From positions 1 to 64,000 of the IMG/VR virus record IMGVR_UViG_3300017786_000003: a stretch of 64,000 nucleotides of DNA, one strand, 5' to 3'. The notes under the pieces were generated by a model. The model was not told the origin of the DNA. It made no database searches and saw nothing but the letters and a program-made list of their open reading frames with translations. The translations under genes were made by a program, and so were the position numbers. Numbering within the stretch: position 1 is the stretch's first letter; each line of letters starts with the position of its first letter. Positions 19,537 through 63,514 of this stretch are shown here, piece by piece. The DNA comes from a virus.

Positions 19537-20460
19537 TTACAAACTCATTATCATATCTACAAGATCAGGATGTGGATAACAATCAGTTTTATCCTTTCTG
19601 ACATTAGTATGTGTTAATAATCCTTTTACTTTTCCGTAATATGCATCAGAATTAAAATCAAACCCTTTTGTAGGGCCATGCTTTTGTATAAATTGTTTTA
19701 AACCTAATCTAATATCTATACCATCTCTTTCACCTATATACCTTAACCATTTTTCTGTTTCTTTAATTTGATTTTCAGAATAATTGTGCCAATGTAAGCT
19801 CCCTCTAAAAGGTTCTTTTAATTCTATAATTTGTGAATGTATACATCTGCTTTTAACATAGGTTAAATTACCATTAGTTAAATAACCCATATTACATATC
19901 TCTAATCCTACTGAATTACGGTTCATATGACCTGATCCAGTTTTACCTAAATGAAATCCTTGATTACCTTCTGGAAATGCTTGAACCATTATTCCATCAT
20001 GCTCATCACTCCCTGTTCTATGATTTTGTCCACCTAATACAAATTCAGTAGCTACTCTACCTCTAGTATCTCTACCCCAATAATCAATACATGCATAAGG
20101 ATTTGCATTTCCTGCAGTATGATGTAAAAAAACATACTCATTAATACAATTAGTTCTTCTAACGTATTCTCCTTTTGGTAAAAAATGTCTATGTATTATT
20201 TGATCATAATTGGTGAGATAATGCTGTGCATATATATCACTGTCCTCATCAATTTCATCTGGCTCACTTACTTGTAAATTAAGTAATATTACCCATGCAT
20301 CATTAGTAACAATACCATCTACTGGTAAATTGTGAGCCAATTGGAATCTTTTAACATGTTTTTCTGTATTAGGTCCAAATATTCCATCTGCTGTAATTCC
20401 TAATTTAGTTTGTAATGTTACTACATCAGGACCTTGATCCCGTATCTTTAACTGTTTCAT
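19537..20460 (-). CDS. Endolysin: PG_binding_1 plus N-acetylmuramoyl-L-alanine amidase (Amidase_2)
   Basis: DGIFGPNTE..VKRFQ...LPVDGIV binding domain; LHHTAG, SVGLEIC and THTNVRKDKTDC zinc-amidase motifs. Confidence 0.9.
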   Translation of the reverse strand: MKQLKIRDQGPDVVTLQTKLGITADGIFGPNTEKHVKRFQLAHNLPVDGIVTNDAWVILLNLQVSEPDEIDEDSDIYAQHYLTNYDQIIHRHFLPKGEYVRRTNCINEYVFLHHTAGNANPYACIDYWGRDTRGRVATEFVLGGQNHRTGSDEHDGIMVQAFPEGNQGFHLGKTGSGHMNRNSVGLEICNMGYLTNGNLTYVKSRCIHSQIIELKEPFRGSLHWHNYSENQIKETEKWLRYIGERDGIDIRLGLKQFIQKHGPTKGFDFNSDAYYGKVKGLLTHTNVRKDKTDCYPHPDLVDMIMSL

Positions 20461-21124: not shown

Positions 21125-21457
21125 CTATTGTTTAATCATTAAGATCCCTGCTGCATTTAATGGTGCATCTCCTGTTCCATCTGTTTGCCATAAACTTCCC
21201 TTTTGAAGTCCTGCAGCTCCTGCTGCTCCATCATCTTCATAGGCTGGTACACCAAGTCCTGATATATCTTTTAACTTTTGATCAGTAAATGATTTTAACA
21301 AAGCTAGTGTAACTAATTCTGTTATTACTTTAGGTTGAGGTTTTAACCTTTCTTGAACATTTGCAAATCTAGCAATTGTAACGTAGTCTTCTGCTTTTGG
21401 GGTAACTACTTCTTTTCTTCTTAACATGCCCATCATGTCTTGTAATATTGTACTCAT
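21125..21457 (-). CDS. Minimal fibre/decoration protein with shared N-terminal docking domain
   Basis: MSTILQDMMGMLRRK...DYVTIAR N-terminus shared with three larger fibres; C-terminal YEDDGAAGAAGLQKGSLW motif. Confidence 0.6.
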   Translation of the reverse strand: MSTILQDMMGMLRRKEVVTPKAEDYVTIARFANVQERLKPQPKVITELVTLALLKSFTDQKLKDISGLGVPAYEDDGAAGAAGLQKGSLWQTDGTGDAPLNAAGILMIKQ

Positions 21458-21474
21458 CTTTTTATTTTATATGG

Positions 21475-21717
21475 TTATCTTTTTTTACCTTTATGTAATC
21501 CATGTCTAGCATGTTGTTTACCTTTTTTTGTTGCAGCTCTCTTCTTTTTATTAGCAGCTGCAAGCTTAGATCTACCTTTCTTAGTAGATTTAAGTTTCTT
21601 AATAGTCTTTGATGGAGCATATACTTCTCCAGTTTCAGAACTTTTTTTACCCGAAGGAGTTCTCCACTTTTGTTTAGTCCATCTAGTTAGACTTTTTTGT
21701 TGTTTTGTTTTTGCCAT
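21475..21717 (-). CDS. Small basic protein, DUF5872 C-terminal half-like
   Basis: QKSLTRWTKQKWRT.SGK.S..TGE.Y.P. Confidence 0.6.
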   Translation of the reverse strand: MAKTKQQKSLTRWTKQKWRTPSGKKSSETGEVYAPSKTIKKLKSTKKGRSKLAAANKKKRAATKKGKQHARHGLHKGKKR

Positions 21718-21902
21718 TACCTAGTTGTAAAAGTATGTAATGAAAATAATATTAATGAAGAAAAAAGTATACCCATAATAGCATGATCAGTTTGAGTCAC
21801 CTTTGCTTCTTTACAGCATTCTTTTCTTTCCCATGATGGCTTTGATGTACCACAGCTCATAAACAAAAATACAAATAATATTAATATAATCCTTTTAATC
21901 AT
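21717..21902 (-). CDS. Small lipoprotein with C-terminal TM helix
   Basis: Signal peptide with lipobox FMS-C followed by GTSK; hydrophobic C-terminus. Confidence 0.55.
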   Translation of the reverse strand: MIKRIILILFVFLFMSCGTSKPSWERKECCKEAKVTQTDHAIMGILFSSLILFSLHTFTTR

Positions 21903-23946: not shown

Positions 23947-24102
23947 ATGAAGAGAGTTATCTACCTATTGTTGTTCCTGTTCGTTGCAGGACCAGCTATT
24001 CAATCTTGTGGTTCTTCAAGAACTTGCAAAACACAGAAGTACAAAAAGAAAATGTACAACAAATGTTGGAATGCAAAGAAACAGAAAATGACAAGATGTT
24101 AA
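23947..24102 (+). CDS. Small basic Cys-rich lipoprotein (51 aa)
   Basis: Not in ORF track: MKRVIYLLLFLFVAGPAIQS-CGSSRTCKTQKYKKKMYNKCWNAKKQKMTRC; lipobox-like IQSC. Confidence 0.65.
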   Translation: MKRVIYLLLFLFVAGPAIQSCGSSRTCKTQKYKKKMYNKCWNAKKQKMTRC

Positions 24103-24112
24103 TCACTCAATC

Positions 24113-24140
24113 GGGGGAAGGAAACTTCCCTCTTTTTATT
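24113..24140 (+). terminator. Intrinsic terminator
   Basis: GGGGGAAG-GAAA-CTTCCCTC-TTTTT. Confidence 0.75.
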
Positions 24141-24162
24141 AACCCATTAAACAAAAACAATT

Positions 24163-24525
24163 ATGAAAAATTTATTTAGAGCAATAATTAAAGCTATATT
24201 TGTAGTTATATTGCCAATCCTCGTACCAATAGTTACATCTTACTATATGATATATAATCCTGTATCAGGAACTATAGTAATATTATTAATAACCGTGATA
24301 TTTCTTACTATGCTGAATGGACTGTTTTATTACACAAAGATGCGTAAAGTAAGCATGTTACCTACATTTAGTTTCCATGATTTTGCATTTGAACCTATTA
24401 TAGGTTTATCAATCGGATGTAAATGTACACCAAGAGGTTTGGAAACAATAATAATAGTACCGTTTATGGTATTAGAAGTTCATGCAAAGTTTAAAAAAAA
24501 ATCACAATATAGTTTAGAATTATGA
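24163..24525 (+). CDS. Membrane protein
   Basis: Two N-terminal hydrophobic helices. Confidence 0.65.
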   Translation: MKNLFRAIIKAIFVVILPILVPIVTSYYMIYNPVSGTIVILLITVIFLTMLNGLFYYTKMRKVSMLPTFSFHDFAFEPIIGLSIGCKCTPRGLETIIIVPFMVLEVHAKFKKKSQYSLEL

Positions 24526-25355
24526 GAGATATAAAATATAGTAAAAACGTACTAAGACTACAATTGATCACATTAGCATTAATGCTTTGTGCTCTTGTAG
24601 CATCAAGTCAATCCTATAAAGGTAACAGAACAATAGAAAATACGTTCAAACCTTATGATGGATATGAAAGATTTGCAAAAGACGCTTACTCAGAATGGTT
24701 AATAGCCCATCCTTTGAAAAGGAATAATCAGGTTATGTACTATGATGGTACGCTGAAAGATAGCAGAGATATATATGTAGCAGTATTTGACTATGAAATA
24801 GGTGACAGAGACCTACATCATTGTGCAGATGCAGCTATATATCTTAGAGCATCATATAATTATAGCAATGGGTTTCTGGATAGATTGACCTATACCTTCA
24901 CTAATGGTATAGAGTCAAGCTATTTGGATTATTTACAAGGTTATAATTATGTAGAAATGAATGGGGGTAGAGACCTCATCAGAAAAATAGGGCAACCAAG
25001 AGAAGATAGTTGTAAGACTTTCAGACAATGGTTAGACCTAATATGGAACTATGCAGGTACAGCATCACTAGAAGGTGATGATACCTATGCAATATCCATG
25101 TTTGAAATGGAGCCAGGAGATATATTTATCCAAGGCGGATATCCAGGACACGCTATGACTGTTGTTGATATGGCTGTAAATGAGAATGGCCATAAGATAT
25201 TTATGCTAGCACAGAGCTTTATGCCAGCACAAGAACAACAGATTGTTATGAATCCTCTTACCAGAGATGTATGGTTCTCACTTGATGATTTAAATTATAT
25301 CATCACACCAGAGTACACATTCACACCTGGACAACTAAGAAGATTTATAAAATAA
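24522..25355 (+). CDS. Secreted DUF4846-family protein (papain/NlpC-like Cys-His fold)
   Basis: Signal peptide ending ASS-Q; DLHHCADAAIYLRASY, YAGTASL, PGDIFIQGGYPGHAMTVVDMA, LAQSFMPAQ. Confidence 0.8.
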   Translation: MRDIKYSKNVLRLQLITLALMLCALVASSQSYKGNRTIENTFKPYDGYERFAKDAYSEWLIAHPLKRNNQVMYYDGTLKDSRDIYVAVFDYEIGDRDLHHCADAAIYLRASYNYSNGFLDRLTYTFTNGIESSYLDYLQGYNYVEMNGGRDLIRKIGQPREDSCKTFRQWLDLIWNYAGTASLEGDDTYAISMFEMEPGDIFIQGGYPGHAMTVVDMAVNENGHKIFMLAQSFMPAQEQQIVMNPLTRDVWFSLDDLNYIITPEYTFTPGQLRRFIK

Positions 25356-49411: not shown

Positions 49412-52400
49412 CTATTGATACATAGTACATGTTATTTCATAAGTTTGAGCTCCCTTAAATCCTACTACTGCACTTGTTCCATTAGTACCTATTACTTCAC
49501 CTTGGAAACCAGTTGTAGTATGATTTCTTGTTACAAATGAAAGAATAGAGGCATTACCCATACTTTTTACTATAGTACATTGAACTAAATAGTTTGCACT
49601 AGGTCTTGTTTGATTAAAAGTTATTGTAAACAATCCGGTTCCTGAATTATATGCTACTTGGTTATTTCCTGGATAAGTTGAATCACCTTGATTAACTATA
49701 CCACTAACACCAAATGAAAAATAATCACTTGGTCCTGGATCAGAAACAACTAAGTTTTTAACCTCAGTATACTTAACTTTATTGGCATCATCTACATCTT
49801 GGTATATTATTAAATCAGAACCATCAGGAATTGATCCAGATGCATTTTGTGCTGATTGGATAACAGAACTTGTACCTACATATTCTACAGCTATATCATC
49901 TGCATTAGCTTTTAAACCTGCCCCAGCTCCAACATTAAGTGTTAATGTTCCAGTAGTACCACTACCTGCTTCAGAACAACCTGTTCCTGCAGTAAGGCTT
50001 GTTACTAATGGTAATGCACTAATAGCAACTCTTTTAACAGTATTAGAATCGTCAGCATCATTAAATATTATCTCATCTGCTATGTCTGCTGAACCGGCTC
50101 CTGGTACTTTTACTAGGTTATCAGCTCCTACAAATTTAACACCTATAGTAGGGTTAACAGTACTAGATCCAGATTCTATTTCTAATGCTTCACCTGCTGT
50201 AATAGATGTAACTGTACCCGCTGGAGGTGCTGATCCTGCAGTAATTGAAGTAATATGTCCGGTTGAATTAACTGTTATGGATGCAGGATGAGCTGATGTA
50301 CCTGCTGAAATAGAGTCAGTGTGATTAACTGTAACAGTATTAGTTGTAAGTGGACCTGGACCAGTTGATGCCTCAGTAATTACTGTTGTTAAACCTGTTC
50401 CACCGGCAATATCAAAATTCTCATCAGTATTTACTACTTGAGCTGGATTTGTATCCGCTTGTAATGTAAATCCATTGTAGAACCCTGGCATTAAATAAAT
50501 CTGTTGTTTCTTAAGTGTATTACCATCAGAGGTATCACTAAACATGTAATAGTCAAGAGTAGCTGGATTTGACTCCGTAGCTCTTGCCATAATTAAGTTG
50601 TCTGATCCGGCTATATCAACACCAATTGTAATAGTATCTGTGGTTGAAGTGTTTACTGTTAGACCACCAAACGTTGAAGCTTGATTTGCAGCAGCAACTG
50701 TAAGAGTACCACCTAAATTAATAGTTTGCGGATTAGATCCATCACTTACAATAAAGTTACCAGCAGCAAAGAAGTTAGAAAGAGTATTCTTTTTTATAGT
50801 ATCACTATCACTTGCATCACTGAACCAAATAGAATCCGCATCTGTTGGAGTTTCAGTAGATGCAGCTAGTATAGCATTATCTGTACCAACATAGTCTATA
50901 TTGACAATTGGACTACTTGCTGTACCTGTAACAGTTATACCAGTTCCTGCATTAACAGTTGTACTACCACCGCCTCCACCAGCTGGGACTTGCCATGTAC
51001 CATCAGCTCTTAAGAATGTGGTTGATTGTGCTGAGCCTGATGAGTCAGGAACATATCCTACTACATTACCACCACCAAACTTATTTAAGCTAAGGTTAAG
51101 GGTGCTTCCAGAAATGCTTCCTGCAAAAGGAGTTGTATTTCCTGTAGTTAATGATAAGTTTAATGTTGTTAAGTTATTAAACGGTAAAGCAGATACTAAT
51201 GATTTCTTTACAGTATTACTATCATCTATATCAGAGAAAAGAATAAAGTCACCAGTAGCTGGTGTGCCTGCAGTTTGTACTTCTATAAAGTTATCTGTAC
51301 CGGCTATATCTAAAGCTATTTGTGCAACATTAGGTGTACCACCTGCTACACTAAAGTCTAAACCAGCTTGTCCCACAAAGTTTATAGTTTCTCCACCAGT
51401 TATTTGCTGTACTACACCACCATCTCCTTGAATACCAAAACTATCTGATCTAAGAATATCTTGAATAACTGCACGCTTTACTGTATTTCCAGCATTAACA
51501 TCATTAAATACTAAAGTATCTGTAGCAATATCTATTACTCCAGCACCTGCTGATAATATAAAGTTATCAGCACCAACATAATCTACAGCTACTGTAGCTG
51601 TTGGTCCTGTTCCATTTGTTACTGTAATACCATCTCCCTCATCTATTTGAGATATTGTACCACTTCCTGCATTAATCCATGCTGTTCCTGAACCAGTAGA
51701 ACTTAATATTTGTCCGTTAGTTCCAACAGCATTAGTTCCATCATAAAGTCCAGACCTTAGTCTTACATTACCATTAACATCTAATTTTTGTGTTGGTACA
51801 GTATTTATACCTACACCACCTTGTCTTAATATCATTGCAGTAGCAGCAACACCGTCAGTAGTTTGTATAAACTCTAGTTGAGATCCTCCTGCACCACTGC
51901 CATCCCAACCAACTTGTCTAATTTCATTTTTTATACCTGCTTGACCAACTGCATCAAAAAGCATAATTTGTGCAGTTATATCACTTACATCATTATTATT
52001 AGAATCAATTTTTATGATTGATGGTCTATCTCCAGGGTGTTTTATAGATAATGAAGTATTTGCTGTAGATTGACTTGGAACCCCTATAGCTAAACAATCA
52101 TCTGAGTTATGCCAAAATAAGTTTGCGTCACTAGATAATGTATCAGCAGCTGACCAGAATGCAACTCTTGTTGCTACACCGGTCCCTGTTACAAAACTAA
52201 GGCTTGATGCCAAGTCTCCAAGTTTAATACTTTTATTACTATCAGCTGATTCATCATATATCATTAACTTATCAGCTATAACTGCATTTGTTGAAAGGTC
52301 AGCTAAATTAAGTATGGTAGTACCAATCTCTATAGCACTACCTGTAGAAATTACATTTGATCCAAGTAAATTACCAGTAGAACTAGACCCTATAGATTTA

Positions 52401-53068
52401 TAACCTACACTTGTACCATCTGATATAATTAATTGACCAGCTGTTCCTGGTGGTAAAGGCTGTTGTATATTACTAGCGTTACCAACCCAGATGTTACCAA
52501 ATGGAAGAGTTACTACCGGGTCATCATCTGACCAAACAACTCTACCATCAGCTAAAGATCTTAATACTCTGTTAGCAGCACCTGCTGCATTACCAGCAGA
52601 ATCATGAACTTTGTTAAACAGTGTTGTAGCATTTGTTGTGTCTCCTGACGTACCTAATTCAACTCTTAATTTTAATACACTATTTTTATCAACCTCCAGA
52701 TTATCATCAACATTTAAATTTCCATTAACTATTATTGAATCAGCAACAGCATTTTGAATCATGATACTATCTTTGATAGCAGGATTTTGTACTAAACATG
52801 TTCCTACAGCTGTACTGCTATACATAGGTACTCTATGTTCTGTTGCAACACCGTCTTGTAAGACAACATTAGTTAGTATATCACATTTAATATCTCCGTA
52901 TTTAACTGCAAAAGGCTCCATTCTTGGAGCGTAAGTACCACCGTGGTTATTTAAAGTACTGGTTTGGTATAAACGTCCAATCTCTAAATAGTCTTTTTGA
53001 CTATCTAGTTTAAGCTGTTTTTTATTTCTCTTTAATAGGCCTAATACCTCTTGTATGAAAACACTCAT
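49412..53068 (-). CDS. Long fibre protein with six Asp-rich repeats and shared N-terminal docking domain
   Basis: 1218 aa, G/S/T-rich; six V.(V/I)D(Y/I).G.DN.I...F.D..D.NT.K repeats; VGINTVPTQKLDVNGNVR fibre motif. Confidence 0.8.
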   Translation of the reverse strand: MSVFIQEVLGLLKRNKKQLKLDSQKDYLEIGRLYQTSTLNNHGGTYAPRMEPFAVKYGDIKCDILTNVVLQDGVATEHRVPMYSSTAVGTCLVQNPAIKDSIMIQNAVADSIIVNGNLNVDDNLEVDKNSVLKLRVELGTSGDTTNATTLFNKVHDSAGNAAGAANRVLRSLADGRVVWSDDDPVVTLPFGNIWVGNASNIQQPLPPGTAGQLIISDGTSVGYKSIGSSSTGNLLGSNVISTGSAIEIGTTILNLADLSTNAVIADKLMIYDESADSNKSIKLGDLASSLSFVTGTGVATRVAFWSAADTLSSDANLFWHNSDDCLAIGVPSQSTANTSLSIKHPGDRPSIIKIDSNNNDVSDITAQIMLFDAVGQAGIKNEIRQVGWDGSGAGGSQLEFIQTTDGVAATAMILRQGGVGINTVPTQKLDVNGNVRLRSGLYDGTNAVGTNGQILSSTGSGTAWINAGSGTISQIDEGDGITVTNGTGPTATVAVDYVGADNFILSAGAGVIDIATDTLVFNDVNAGNTVKRAVIQDILRSDSFGIQGDGGVVQQITGGETINFVGQAGLDFSVAGGTPNVAQIALDIAGTDNFIEVQTAGTPATGDFILFSDIDDSNTVKKSLVSALPFNNLTTLNLSLTTGNTTPFAGSISGSTLNLSLNKFGGGNVVGYVPDSSGSAQSTTFLRADGTWQVPAGGGGGSTTVNAGTGITVTGTASSPIVNIDYVGTDNAILAASTETPTDADSIWFSDASDSDTIKKNTLSNFFAAGNFIVSDGSNPQTINLGGTLTVAAANQASTFGGLTVNTSTTDTITIGVDIAGSDNLIMARATESNPATLDYYMFSDTSDGNTLKKQQIYLMPGFYNGFTLQADTNPAQVVNTDENFDIAGGTGLTTVITEASTGPGPLTTNTVTVNHTDSISAGTSAHPASITVNSTGHITSITAGSAPPAGTVTSITAGEALEIESGSSTVNPTIGVKFVGADNLVKVPGAGSADIADEIIFNDADDSNTVKRVAISALPLVTSLTAGTGCSEAGSGTTGTLTLNVGAGAGLKANADDIAVEYVGTSSVIQSAQNASGSIPDGSDLIIYQDVDDANKVKYTEVKNLVVSDPGPSDYFSFGVSGIVNQGDSTYPGNNQVAYNSGTGLFTITFNQTRPSANYLVQCTIVKSMGNASILSFVTRNHTTTGFQGEVIGTNGTSAVVGFKGAQTYEITCTMYQ

Positions 53069-54453: not shown

Positions 54454-54921
54454 TTATTTGTTATTACTAATTGACTTAAATTTTTCTGCCCCTCTGCTTC
54501 CAAAGTAGGCTACATAAACGGTAATGAGAAGTGACTTGAGTAAATCTACCCAGCCAGCATCAATACCAAACTCTATGTCAAAACCATCTAACAAAATAAA
54601 TATAACTAATGAAACAGTTAAAAATATTAATGTTAAAGGTCTTGTGTTCTTACTTAGATATGAATCAGATTGCATATCCGCCTGCCATCTTTTGCTGACT
54701 TCTTGCATCTCAACCATATCCATCTCTAAAAGCTTTAATGCTTTTTCTTTATCTTCTGGTGGTAACACAGCAGGGTCTTCCTTCTCTATAAGAGATTTAA
54801 CCATGCCAAGTACACCTGCATCTGGAAGTAAGTCTCCAGCTACGCCTAACAGACTAGGAACTTTCTCAACAAGAAATTTTCCCACTCTGGTGTCTTTGAA
54901 TTTTTTCTTTCCTTTGCTCAT
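54454..54921 (-). CDS. Holin (3TM / GTA-holin-like)
   Basis: RWQADMQSDSYLSKNTRPL, TM helices, YFGSRGAEK. Confidence 0.8.
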   Translation of the reverse strand: MSKGKKKFKDTRVGKFLVEKVPSLLGVAGDLLPDAGVLGMVKSLIEKEDPAVLPPEDKEKALKLLEMDMVEMQEVSKRWQADMQSDSYLSKNTRPLTLIFLTVSLVIFILLDGFDIEFGIDAGWVDLLKSLLITVYVAYFGSRGAEKFKSISNNK

Positions 54922-54923
54922 AA

Positions 54924-55331
54924 TTATTTTTTCTTACTTGCAGTTACTTTACTTTCACCTTTAGTTACTGTAACATCTGTGTCAGTAACATCTACCTGCA
55001 TTGGATCATCTTCTTTATCAGACAACTCTTTAATCAAGCTCTTAATTATTTCTAACTCAGGCTTCTCTTCTTTTTCTTTTGCTCCAACTATATGTTGTAA
55101 TATACCTATCAATGCCATTGCTGCTGTAGATACCAAACCAATAACTGCTGTTAGTGCTCCACCTTCTAAAGCTGTAGAACTTACTACACCTATTACTACT
55201 AATACTGTGATATAATTTATAGCATGTTTACCTAAATGTTTAGATGCTATTTCTTTAGCTGTACTTTGAGCTACAATTTTATCAATCTCAATCTTTGCTA
55301 ATACTTCTTCTTTTAATTTTTCTCTACTCAT
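54924..55331 (-). CDS. Membrane protein (2 TM), holin-associated
   Basis: Two hydrophobic helices; directly upstream of the holin. Confidence 0.6.
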   Translation of the reverse strand: MSREKLKEEVLAKIEIDKIVAQSTAKEIASKHLGKHAINYITVLVVIGVVSSTALEGGALTAVIGLVSTAAMALIGILQHIVGAKEKEEKPELEIIKSLIKELSDKEDDPMQVDVTDTDVTVTKGESKVTASKKK

Positions 55332-61554: not shown

Positions 61555-61959
61555 TTAAAATTGTGATTCTCTTTTGCAATCATCAATAGAAAGCTGCAAC
61601 TCTTCTAGTGTCACTGGACATACAAGATCAAGCCCTGCTTTGAATGCAGCATACTTAAATCCATCCTTATCAAATACAATGATTGTTGGAGCCATTCGTA
61701 CTCTATACTTTTTCTTTGCTTTTAGGTTCTCTGATATATCCGCCCTATAGTATTTTACACCTGTTAGTTTTCCCCAGTCCTTAAAAGAGTTATCGTCATT
61801 AAATTCTGCCCAAAACTCTACTACAACCAAAACATCTAAATCGTCAAATGCAGAATTACCTACTACAGACTTTTCAAAATCTTTATCCGTTAACCAATCT
61901 TGTCCATTAACTGTAGTACTAAACAGTAAAAAAAAGAAACATAATACTGCTCTTTTCAT
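61555..61959 (-). CDS. Secreted thioredoxin-fold protein lacking CxxC
   Basis: Signal peptide ending VNG-Q; VVVEFWAEFN in place of WAxWCxxC; cis-Pro motif MAPTIIVF. Confidence 0.7.
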   Translation of the reverse strand: MKRAVLCFFFLLFSTTVNGQDWLTDKDFEKSVVGNSAFDDLDVLVVVEFWAEFNDDNSFKDWGKLTGVKYYRADISENLKAKKKYRVRMAPTIIVFDKDGFKYAAFKAGLDLVCPVTLEELQLSIDDCKRESQF

Positions 61960-61962
61960 AGT

Positions 61963-62244
61963 TTATTTTTTAGTTAAATCATAGATTCTCTCTTCCATTT
62001 TCTCAAACTTCTCAAGGAGCATCTCTACATCCTCTTGGGTATCCATAATTGTTTGTCTTACTAGTTCATCTTTTAGATCATACTCAACCCTGTCTATAAC
62101 TGGCTTGGGCATTTCCATTGCATGAGCTATATCTGCTTGGAGTGTAAACCACATTGTTGCTAATGTGATAGTAAATCCTACAATCATACCTATTGTTTTT
62201 AAGTCTAATGTTACCTGAGTTTCTTCTCCTATTTTCTGTGCCAT
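61963..62244 (-). CDS. Single-pass membrane protein with C-terminal coiled coil
   Basis: TM helix IGMIVGFTITLATMWF; coiled tail ending KMEERIYDL. Confidence 0.7.
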   Translation of the reverse strand: MAQKIGEETQVTLDLKTIGMIVGFTITLATMWFTLQADIAHAMEMPKPVIDRVEYDLKDELVRQTIMDTQEDVEMLLEKFEKMEERIYDLTKK

Positions 62245-62250
62245 TTTATT

Positions 62251-63459
62251 TTATTTAAAACTGAAATTTAATCCAAATGATGTAAGGAATAATTCACTAT
62301 CCCACATTTTAGAATACTCACCTTCAACAAATACTCCAAAGTTTTTACTGAGCTTCCAACCTAAACTAAGTCCAGCAGAATAATCATCCCACTGTTCTAG
62401 ATCTGCGTCTTCTCTTAATCCACCTTTACCCCAGTTGTTTCTATTTAGATAAGACACTTCTTCATCTCCTTTAATATATCTATGGTAAGGTAATATATAG
62501 TTTGCATATGCATGAACCCAAAATTTGCTTTCATAATGATAAAAATCCATTCCTACAATTGGTGCAATCTCACCAAAAGCATCAAGCATATCCCACTGCT
62601 CATTATTATAACGGTTCATAAGATCAGTAAATACTGTTTCTCTAAACTCTAAGTCTGTATCAGCTACTCTATTTCCTTGAGGATCTACCCAATACCAGTC
62701 ACTTGTTTGGTTCCCTAGCTCATCTTCTGAAGTATAATATATATCATCATACCCATATTCAAACCCTAGCTCATACCAATAGTTTACAGGATACTCTTCA
62801 CCGTTTATAACTTGTGTTTCATTTAACCATATTTCAATTGGATTATATCCATAAGCACGGTCATGAGTACGGTAGATTGCTCCAGCTGATATACTAAACT
62901 TTTCACCTAATGGTAACCTAGCTCTTAACTCTGCTGACTGATAATCAAGATTTATCTTTCCTACTTCTCTTGATTCAACTTTTACTATGTGATATTTTCC
63001 ACTATGTTTTAAAAAGAATCTATGATTTTTAAAGTCTTCTCCTCTCCATCTTTCTTTTTCAAAATGGAATTGATATTCTAATCCTTGTAGTGCAGAAGAA
63101 GGTGCAGTAAAAGCAAGCTGTTGTTCTGTGCCATCATACCAGTTTCTTGGCTTTCTTTCATAATCAAATCTTGCTAGCTTTCTAATACCAAATCCATATC
63201 TATAGTCAAAAGGAAATACTTCCGTATTATCTACTACATCTGGAATAGAATATAAGCCACCATCTGGGTTTGTTCTTACAAAATAAGTTTGTTGTCTTGC
63301 TTCTATAGAATTTTTTACATCACCGGCACCATATACAGTACCATACTGTAGAAAATCAGAAACTAAATCCTTTACAAAACTACGTTCTTTAATAGAATCT
63401 TGTGCTAGTAATGTAGTGTAAGAGAGCATACATACCAACACTAAAAAATATTTTCTCAT
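62251..63459 (-). CDS. Putative outer-membrane beta-barrel protein
   Basis: Signal peptide ending LLA-Q; aromatic-rich alternating strands; C-terminal strand FGLNFSFK. Confidence 0.65.
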   Translation of the reverse strand: MRKYFLVLVCMLSYTTLLAQDSIKERSFVKDLVSDFLQYGTVYGAGDVKNSIEARQQTYFVRTNPDGGLYSIPDVVDNTEVFPFDYRYGFGIRKLARFDYERKPRNWYDGTEQQLAFTAPSSALQGLEYQFHFEKERWRGEDFKNHRFFLKHSGKYHIVKVESREVGKINLDYQSAELRARLPLGEKFSISAGAIYRTHDRAYGYNPIEIWLNETQVINGEEYPVNYWYELGFEYGYDDIYYTSEDELGNQTSDWYWVDPQGNRVADTDLEFRETVFTDLMNRYNNEQWDMLDAFGEIAPIVGMDFYHYESKFWVHAYANYILPYHRYIKGDEEVSYLNRNNWGKGGLREDADLEQWDDYSAGLSLGWKLSKNFGVFVEGEYSKMWDSELFLTSFGLNFSFK

Positions 63460-63506
63460 ATTTTAAATGTATTATATTAATAAGCTGTGCATTGGTTTGT
63501 ATACTA

Positions 63507-63514
63507 ATAATATA
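63507..63514 (-). promoter_or_regulatory. Late promoter motif TATATTAT
   Basis: About 50 nt upstream of the beta-barrel gene. Confidence 0.4.

Follow-up and report, generated by a model that had tools for sequence, protein, structure and literature searches.

Spanins such as the Rz/Rz1 pair of lambda act on the outer membrane in phage lysis, after the endolysin has stripped the peptidoglycan. In the survey by Kongari et al. (2018, PMC6139136), no spanin could be identified in about 13% of phages that infect Gram-negative hosts, and a 2025 survey found Bacteroidetes phages annotated with unimolecular spanins only (PMC12596118). It is an open question how phages that lack a recognizable spanin get through the outer membrane. 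Here, we analyze three adjacent genes (the trio) whose families offer a concrete candidate for that step. They specify a predicted outer-membrane beta-barrel of 402 amino acids (aa), a 93-aa single-pass membrane protein and a 134-aa protein with a thioredoxin fold, and are carried by IMG/VR virus record IMGVR_UViG_3300017786_000003. The stretch analyzed (the window) comprises bases 1 to 64,000 of this 107,860-bp record, the completeness of which is estimated at 94%.

With somewhat less than even confidence, we favor a reading of the trio as an envelope module that is linked to lysis and either carries out the outer-membrane step or governs it. This genome adds the observation that the three genes stay together even after relocation of the trio away from the lysis genes.

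Results

Conservation and gene neighborhood of the trio

The original prediction, made from the DNA letters, had proposed three tightly packed genes that a phage uses to install a complex across the host envelope. The layout is as proposed, with three minus-strand open reading frames (ORFs) separated by 6 nt (402-aa and 93-aa genes) and 3 nt (93-aa and 134-aa genes), and the phage origin is equally sound. The large terminase (724 aa) has ~25% identity to crAss-like terminases, and its matches are mostly phages of Bacteroidota hosts (Flavobacterium, Bacteroides, Cellulophaga). A portal protein of 916 aa and a major head protein of 539 aa are also encoded, in DNA of ~32% guanine plus cytosine. 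The source is an uncultured marine phage that is, by its terminase, distantly crAss-like.

Conservation was assessed in 102 listed IMG/VR loci (numbered with an L), comprising 21 close loci, at least 80 distant ones and the window's own. The barrel gene is present in 99 of these, the membrane-protein gene in 86 to 88 and the thioredoxin gene in 85; most absences of the latter two concern contigs that end just past the barrel gene. The co-occurrence that an envelope complex would demand is thus found, with the trio together in ~85 of the 102 viral loci. The order barrel, membrane protein, thioredoxin on one strand is nearly universal (permuted in L083 and L086), and the genes of the two small proteins abut or overlap in nearly all loci. 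Between the barrel gene and this pair, variable genes can take up as much as 3 kb. In the close relatives L001, L004, L005 and L010, the gene of a variable lipoprotein separates the barrel gene from the membrane-protein gene, and two of these inserted lipoproteins carry Pro-rich tails like those of outer-membrane spanins (o-spanins).

The trio also occurs on unrelated backbones, namely those of L074 (a long-tailed phage with a tape-measure gene), L052 (which encodes GroEL) and L051 (whose portal belongs to a different family). Its position relative to the giant gene is rearranged in L009 and L011, where it is still intact.

All genes of the 102 loci were clustered, and the commonest neighbors were annotated. 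A holin of family phrog_3427 was found at 42 loci, a Peptidase_M15_3 endolysin (phrog_894) at 41 and a second endolysin-like family at 14. Divergent loci commonly read barrel, membrane protein, thioredoxin, Peptidase_M15 endolysin, holin phrog_3427. Grouping of the barrels at 70% identity, used to remove redundancy, left 14 lineages with loci of ~13 kb. An endolysin or holin gene lies in the locus in 13 of these lineages and no more than two genes from the trio in 10. In L002, whose barrel is 73% identical to that of the window, the endolysin gene directly follows the thioredoxin gene. Other genes recur in the cassettes of relatives (L023-L102; e.g., L030:5438-5650 and L100:2981-3307), including one for a 70-aa holin-like protein with two transmembrane domains (TMDs) at 30 loci, genes for secreted Cys-rich proteins of ~230 and ~180 aa and, at some loci, a paralog of the 93-aa protein adjoining the endolysin gene.

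The original prediction had offered superinfection exclusion, nutrient or metal uptake, and a spanin-like lysis step as possible functions. Only the last gains independent support, from the gene neighborhood of relatives; this genome itself lends no such support. Here, a homolog of the phrog_3427 holin and an endolysin candidate are encoded elsewhere in the window (Table 1), and the M15 endolysin of the relatives has no homolog in the whole 107.9-kb genome. Since the trio is intact here though away from the holin and endolysin genes, it behaves as a unit that can be detached from lysis genes.

A conventional spanin was sought at several levels. No lipobox ORF of at least 20 aa, as expected of an embedded Rz1-style gene, occurs on either strand within or beside positions 61555-62300, and a lipoprotein census of the genome found none beside the trio. 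The other small envelope ORFs scanned in the window gave no spanin match in PHROG, and no spanin pair is visible in the lysis cassettes of relatives.

Two further small proteins of the window touch on lysis. Directly upstream of the holin homolog lies the gene for a 135-aa protein with adjacent TMDs (37-55 and 60-78) and no PHROG match, a candidate for a second holin or for a component of an antiholin. A 61-aa ORF among small basic-protein genes, also without a PHROG match, has a lipoprotein-type N terminus (LFMSC) and a second hydrophobic segment at 41-59. Its apparent topology is that of a unimolecular spanin, and at this length it is far too short to span the periplasm.

Features of the three proteins

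Signal-peptide cleavage sites of the 402-aa and 134-aa proteins were read from the sequence and from homologs. The 402-aa protein begins with a signal-peptide-like stretch that is conserved across the family (MRKYFLVLVCMLSYTTLLA, with QDS after the putative cleavage site). Most of its predicted strands alternate polar and hydrophobic residues, and it ends in FGLNFSFK, with an aromatic penultimate residue and a final Lys; distant homologs end in F, K or R. An AlphaFold2 (AF2) model built with 31 diverse homologs (predicted local distance difference test [pLDDT] score, 76) is rich in strands, with ~12 long ones plus an insert, and reads as a barrel, as the original prediction required. Every Foldseek match of this model in the PDB below an E value of 1e-3 is an outer-membrane barrel (E, 1e-5 to 1e-3), and VIA, an aligner independent of Foldseek, returned Z scores of 9-10 to the TamA barrel, NanC, Tsx, CdiB, FhaC and OmpG. 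As the top VIA scores are tied among unrelated barrels, the fold match is generic. A separate BFVD model of a viral homolog with 22% identity superposes on ours with template modeling (TM) scores of 0.70/0.81. The protein is thus predicted to be an outer-membrane beta-barrel of ~12 strands.

At the sequence level, the barrel has no family match in Pfam, PHROG, NCBIfam or the PDB (Pfam and NCBIfam searched to an E value of 1), and none of 31 aligned members matches a Pfam outer-membrane family (E up to 0.1). The family comprises 2306 clusters at 90% identity and 237 at 50%, and the nearest Atlas clusters are all viral and unnamed. Identity to the window protein is 58-80% within the lineage and drops to ~25-35% in distant homologs. 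No relative of the window's barrel was found in the GTDB species genomes, which thus gave no hint of a prophage or of a host, and tblastn of 50,697 deposited phage records with this barrel, two distant barrels and the thioredoxin gave no match, so that no cultured or deposited carrier of the module is known. As far as such searches reach, the barrel family is phage-only, without a detected cellular homolog.

The insert (residues 200-294; 95 residues) contains 23% Asp plus Glu, 17% Tyr plus Trp and no Lys. It is retained even in distant homologs, with W257, G262, A266 and F272 nearly invariant. The most conserved motif of the barrel, GIRKLARFxYE (91-101), is located at the end of strand 2. Loop lengths in the model would place the short turns 154-156, 185-187, 310-312 and 370-373 in the periplasm and the long loops 50-84, 200-294 and 323-358 outside, which would put GIRKLARFxYE at the periplasmic end of its strand, where a partner would bind.

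Two other leads on the barrel carry little weight. The nearest named Atlas clusters (DUF6850, Lsa36, autotransporter, Chlam_OMP) are at chance level. Conserved His, Asp and Glu residues (H199, H316, D359, E128, E379) had prompted the idea of an OMPLA-, LpxR- or PagP-like lipid hydrolase; the scores to OMPLA (Z, 8.1) and LpxR (Z, 7.6) are indistinguishable from those to other barrels.

The 93-aa protein is single-pass, as had been proposed, with one hydrophobic segment (17-35) after a short N-terminal tail. A nearly invariant Lys precedes this TMD; a Pro-containing linker of variable length follows it and leads to a conserved C-terminal stretch (E54..K58..R63) that we read as helical. The periplasmic part has ~57 residues, and the protein is devoid of Cys. 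Its matches are weak (phrog_1009, of unknown function, E 0.015; PspC, E 0.067), and DUF2730 (Atlas, 0.82) was dismissed as a chance-level lead. All three families appear to be phage-only and are without an assignment in Pfam, PHROG or NCBIfam; that of the 93-aa protein has clusters comparable in number to those of the barrel (2306) and thioredoxin (2847) families.

The 134-aa protein also starts with a signal-peptide-like stretch (MKRAVLCFFFLLFSTTVNG, continuing with QDW after the putative cleavage site). A profile of its family matches PDB thioredoxins with E values of 6e-8 to 1e-6, aligning EFWAEFNDDN with the thioredoxin FWAPWCGPC so that WCGPC stands opposite FNDDN. Its AF2 model (pLDDT, 85) retrieved thioredoxins in Foldseek with TM(target) scores of 0.64-0.79 at ~22% identity. 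The Pfam scores of the protein itself to Thioredoxin_2 and Thioredoxin are under the curated cutoffs (22.4 versus 27; 19.9 versus 23.5), and most homologs have a precomputed PF00085 match. Among 19 aligned sequences, F53, N54 and N57 are invariant, and so are R88, M89, P91 and T92 of the cis-Pro loop RMAPT, which aligns with the (I/V)PT loop of thioredoxin. The family has no conserved Cys, and WNxxN occurs at the same place in its very distant lineages. The thioredoxin fold without CxxC recognized in the original prediction is therefore genuine, and it turns out that invariant Asn residues (NxxN) occupy both active-site Cys positions.

Because both Cys residues are replaced by Asn, thiol-disulfide chemistry is impossible in this protein. 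Thioredoxin folds bind peptides through a groove, and the 134-aa protein probably retains that groove (NxxN plus the cis-Pro loop), through which it may act as an adaptor. A complex prediction that combined barrel residues 20-402, membrane-protein residues 37-93 and thioredoxin residues 21-134 (the scored partner) gave 0.01 against a mark of 0.32, which speaks neither for nor against binding.

Genome context

Table 1. Features of the trio locus and of the remaining window
Feature	Position	Strand	Remark
Barrel gene, 402 aa	62251-63459	-	ORF list
Single-pass membrane protein gene, 93 aa	61963-62244	-	ORF list
Thioredoxin-fold gene, 134 aa	61555-61959	-	ORF list
TATATTAT motif	63507-63514	-	Within the 71-nt gap upstream of the barrel gene
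TTTG-TATATTAT copies	4506, 6283, 11453, 56992, 57066	-	Intergenic, upstream of minus-strand genes
Holin homolog (phrog_3427 family)	54454-54921	-	Profile from 42 loci, E 2e-38; PHROG phrog_3427, E 1e-17
135-aa two-TMD protein	54924-55331	-
Endolysin candidate	19537-20460	-	Peptidoglycan-binding N terminus plus amidase-like part; PHROG endolysin/amidase matches
61-aa ORF	21717-21902	-
Tail-fiber gene, 516 aa	59992-61542	-	Peptidase_S74 chaperone domain; 12 nt past the last gene of the trio; shared N-terminal motif
110-aa protein	21125-21457	-	Shared N-terminal motif
1218-aa protein	49412-53068	-	Shared N-terminal motif
Three consecutive giant genes, 1906, 4565 and 1119 aa	63531-86339	-	Directly upstream of the trio; partly past the window
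Small envelope-targeted gene cluster	23947-25355	+	51-aa lipoprotein-like ORF, 120-aa two-TMD protein, 277-aa protein with signal-peptide-like N terminus
Lipoprotein-like ORF, 78 aa	48464-48700

The trio is flanked by the gene for the 1906-aa giant protein on one side and the tail-fiber gene on the other (Table 1). A PHROG search with all three giant proteins found no match; by position, their genes presumably resemble those of the large proteins that are packaged in crAss-like virions. Ribonucleotide reductase genes adjoin the trio in this lineage, on the opposite strand.

The TATATTAT motif upstream of the barrel gene had been called late-type. Its enrichment in the window is modest, since the 29 copies present compare with an expectation of 17.1 +/- 4.0, and a count of 29 was attained in 1 of 100 shuffles. 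Five other minus-strand intergenic copies read TTTG-TATATTAT, several of which lie within or next to the block of head genes, and TTTG-TATATTAT could serve this phage as a late promoter element. The copy before the barrel gene reads TTCT-TATATTAT; for this one, a late-type promoter is a plausible label and not a finding.

Some further features of the genome are recorded here. The 3' end of the tail-fiber gene has 70.7% DNA identity to a gene of Methylophilales phage Venkman. The tail fiber and two other minus-strand proteins have an N-terminal motif in common (MGNILQDMMGLLSRKK, MSTILQDMMGMLRRKE, MSVFIQEVLGLLKRNKK), which may be a shared attachment adaptor for fiber proteins. A cluster of small envelope-targeted genes occupies the plus strand, which is probably the early one, and, together with an additional 78-aa lipoprotein-like ORF, provides candidates for superinfection exclusion.

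Discussion

Our data suggest that the trio might be a single envelope module that is conserved among marine Bacteroidota phages, moves horizontally and is part of their lysis system. Late in infection, Sec would export the barrel, which would then become inserted in the outer membrane of the host. The 93-aa protein would have its N-in anchor in the inner membrane and its conserved C-terminal helix in the periplasm, into which the redox-dead thioredoxin would be secreted to act as an adaptor through its retained groove. Together, the three proteins would link the inner and outer membranes and, after the endolysin strips the peptidoglycan, execute or gate the outer-membrane lysis step that is the task of spanins elsewhere. 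The present genome would then be a case in which the module has been split from the holin and endolysin genes yet kept whole.

Several lines of evidence support a role in lysis. The trio is conserved as a unit in the listed loci, has endolysin or holin genes nearby in most barrel lineages and crosses unrelated backbones as lysis cassettes do. Its products are predicted to be distributed over all three compartments (outer membrane, periplasm, inner membrane), no canonical spanin is recognizable, and the lipoproteins inserted in relatives include two with o-spanin-like Pro-rich tails. Moreover, the most conserved motif of the barrel would be periplasmic and face a partner. A detached trio is compatible with this role because phage lysis genes need not cluster. 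A bolder version, which we put forward with correspondingly less confidence, is that the trio represents an undescribed class of outer-membrane disruption, i.e., a barrel-anchored, three-part spanin equivalent with a redox-dead thioredoxin as periplasmic coupler, employed by thousands of phages, of several unrelated morphotypes, that infect marine Bacteroidota. A literature search retrieved no paper describing such a three-gene set.

A number of observations weigh against a role in lysis. The holin and endolysin genes of this genome lie 6.6 kb and 41 kb from the trio, which is outside the lysis cassette in most loci of the window's own lineage, so that the neighborhood argument is borrowed from relatives. 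Gene neighborhood is also the one source of functional support, and envelope genes unrelated to lysis can adjoin lysis genes; lambda bor, next to Rz/Rz1, is such a gene. The large conserved insert, outward-facing by the logic of loop lengths, is not obviously needed by a fusion machine, and the further secreted proteins interleaved in the cassettes of relatives suggest surface remodeling before lysis. With ~57 Cys-free residues, the periplasmic part of the 93-aa protein is unlike that of inner-membrane spanins (i-spanins), which are believed to be typically longer in this part. Finally, the tblastn search of 50,697 deposited phage records found no cultured phage with the module.

The interleaved secreted proteins also bear on an alternative in which the trio remodels the cell surface. 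The barrel would mask or replace a receptor or stop virions from sticking to debris (superinfection exclusion or progeny protection), with the two small proteins aiding its biogenesis or anchoring. Most of the outer-membrane proteins that phages are known to encode act in exclusion or at the host surface (lambda Lom and Bor, T5 Llp), the insert of the barrel is large, conserved and probably surface-exposed, and in this genome the trio adjoins the tail-fiber gene, not lysis genes. However, exclusion genes are usually accessory, variable and lineage-specific, whereas the trio is a core set across very divergent, unrelated phages and travels with endolysin and holin genes. Surface remodeling also gives no reason for the strict co-inheritance of an inner-membrane partner and a periplasmic thioredoxin fold, and we judge it unlikely. 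More doubtful still is a regulator of lysis timing, in which the holin or endolysin is the target of the thioredoxin fold and the single-pass protein, much as the T4 holin T is the target of the antiholin RI, and the barrel is an outer-membrane sensor or anchor. The proximity of holin and endolysin genes in most lineages would suit such a regulator, as would the paralogs of the membrane protein beside the endolysin gene in some loci and the N-in topology with a periplasmic tail that is found in T4-type holin/antiholin partners. Yet the proteins resemble RI, RIII and the known antiholins neither in sequence nor in fold, we know of no lysis regulator that includes an outer-membrane barrel, and the cassettes would still be without an outer-membrane disruptor.

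The remaining two explanations start from the neighbors of the trio in this genome. An uptake channel for nucleosides, metals or nutrients that feed phage replication could be read from the ribonucleotide reductase genes that the trio abuts in this lineage and from the nucleoside channel Tsx among the tied top structural matches (Z, 9.6). These reductase genes, however, are on the opposite strand and are absent near the trio in other lineages, and Tsx ties with a dozen unrelated barrels in what is a generic fold match. The orientation of the trio is that of late and structural genes, and neither the membrane protein nor the dead thioredoxin would be needed; an uptake role is accordingly very improbable. 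The location of the trio on the same strand as the three giant genes, immediately downstream of them and upstream of the tail-fiber gene, would fit virion-associated or ejected proteins that build a conduit for DNA entry across the envelope. This we regard as scarcely credible, given that cleavable Sec-type signal peptides on two of the three proteins would take them out of the cytoplasm, where virions assemble, and that elsewhere the trio stands in lysis cassettes away from structural genes, including those of long-tailed phages without giant genes.

The significance of the trio does not depend on lysis alone. It is spread over unrelated marine phage backbones that infect an ecologically dominant host group. 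Even if its role is not lysis, the barrels would form a core, phage-only outer-membrane family without a detected cellular homolog, and an invariant NxxN in place of CxxC in a thioredoxin would be a new case in protein biology.

Comparison with described systems places each protein within a familiar fold class and apart from its known members. The barrel falls, by prediction, in the class of generic 12- to 16-stranded barrels (NanC, Tsx, the TamA/FhaC barrels, autotransporter beta-domains, OmpG), with which it has in common alternating strands and, putatively, a signal peptide and a C-terminal strand resembling the beta-signal. It differs from them in belonging to no Pfam or NCBIfam outer-membrane family by sequence profile, in its tied and modest scores (Z, 9-10; TM[query], 0.2-0.3), in its unique 95-residue acidic aromatic insert and in being known only from viral contigs. 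Like lambda Lom and the OmpC-like porins of uncultured phages in BFVD, it is phage-encoded and, by prediction, bound for the host outer membrane; those proteins are accessory and host-homologous, whereas the barrel is a core gene that is nearly always accompanied by two partner genes. The 134-aa protein has the fold and conserved cis-Pro loop of thioredoxin (TrxA family, PF00085). Unlike TrxA, it appears to be secreted by a signal peptide, carries (F/W)NxxN for WCGPC and has an extra C-terminal helix.

As a whole, the trio is closest to two-component spanins of the lambda Rz/Rz1 type (PMC6139136). It is likewise encoded by phages and belongs to the lysis cassette in most lineages. As in spanins, one partner would be an inner-membrane protein whose N-terminal TMD precedes a periplasmic domain, putatively helical in the trio, and another would be anchored in the outer membrane; the predicted locations together span the envelope. 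The outer-membrane partner of the trio, however, is a 402-aa beta-barrel and not a small lipoprotein; a third obligatory component, the redox-dead thioredoxin fold, is added; and there is no sequence similarity. Periplasmic cysteines are absent from the trio (none in the 93-aa protein, none conserved in the thioredoxin family), and in this genome its genes lie away from those of the holin and endolysin. Because it departs from spanins in three respects (the o-spanin lipoprotein, the periplasmic Cys and, here, the lysis-cassette position), the trio would be spanin-like in its working and yet not a spanin.

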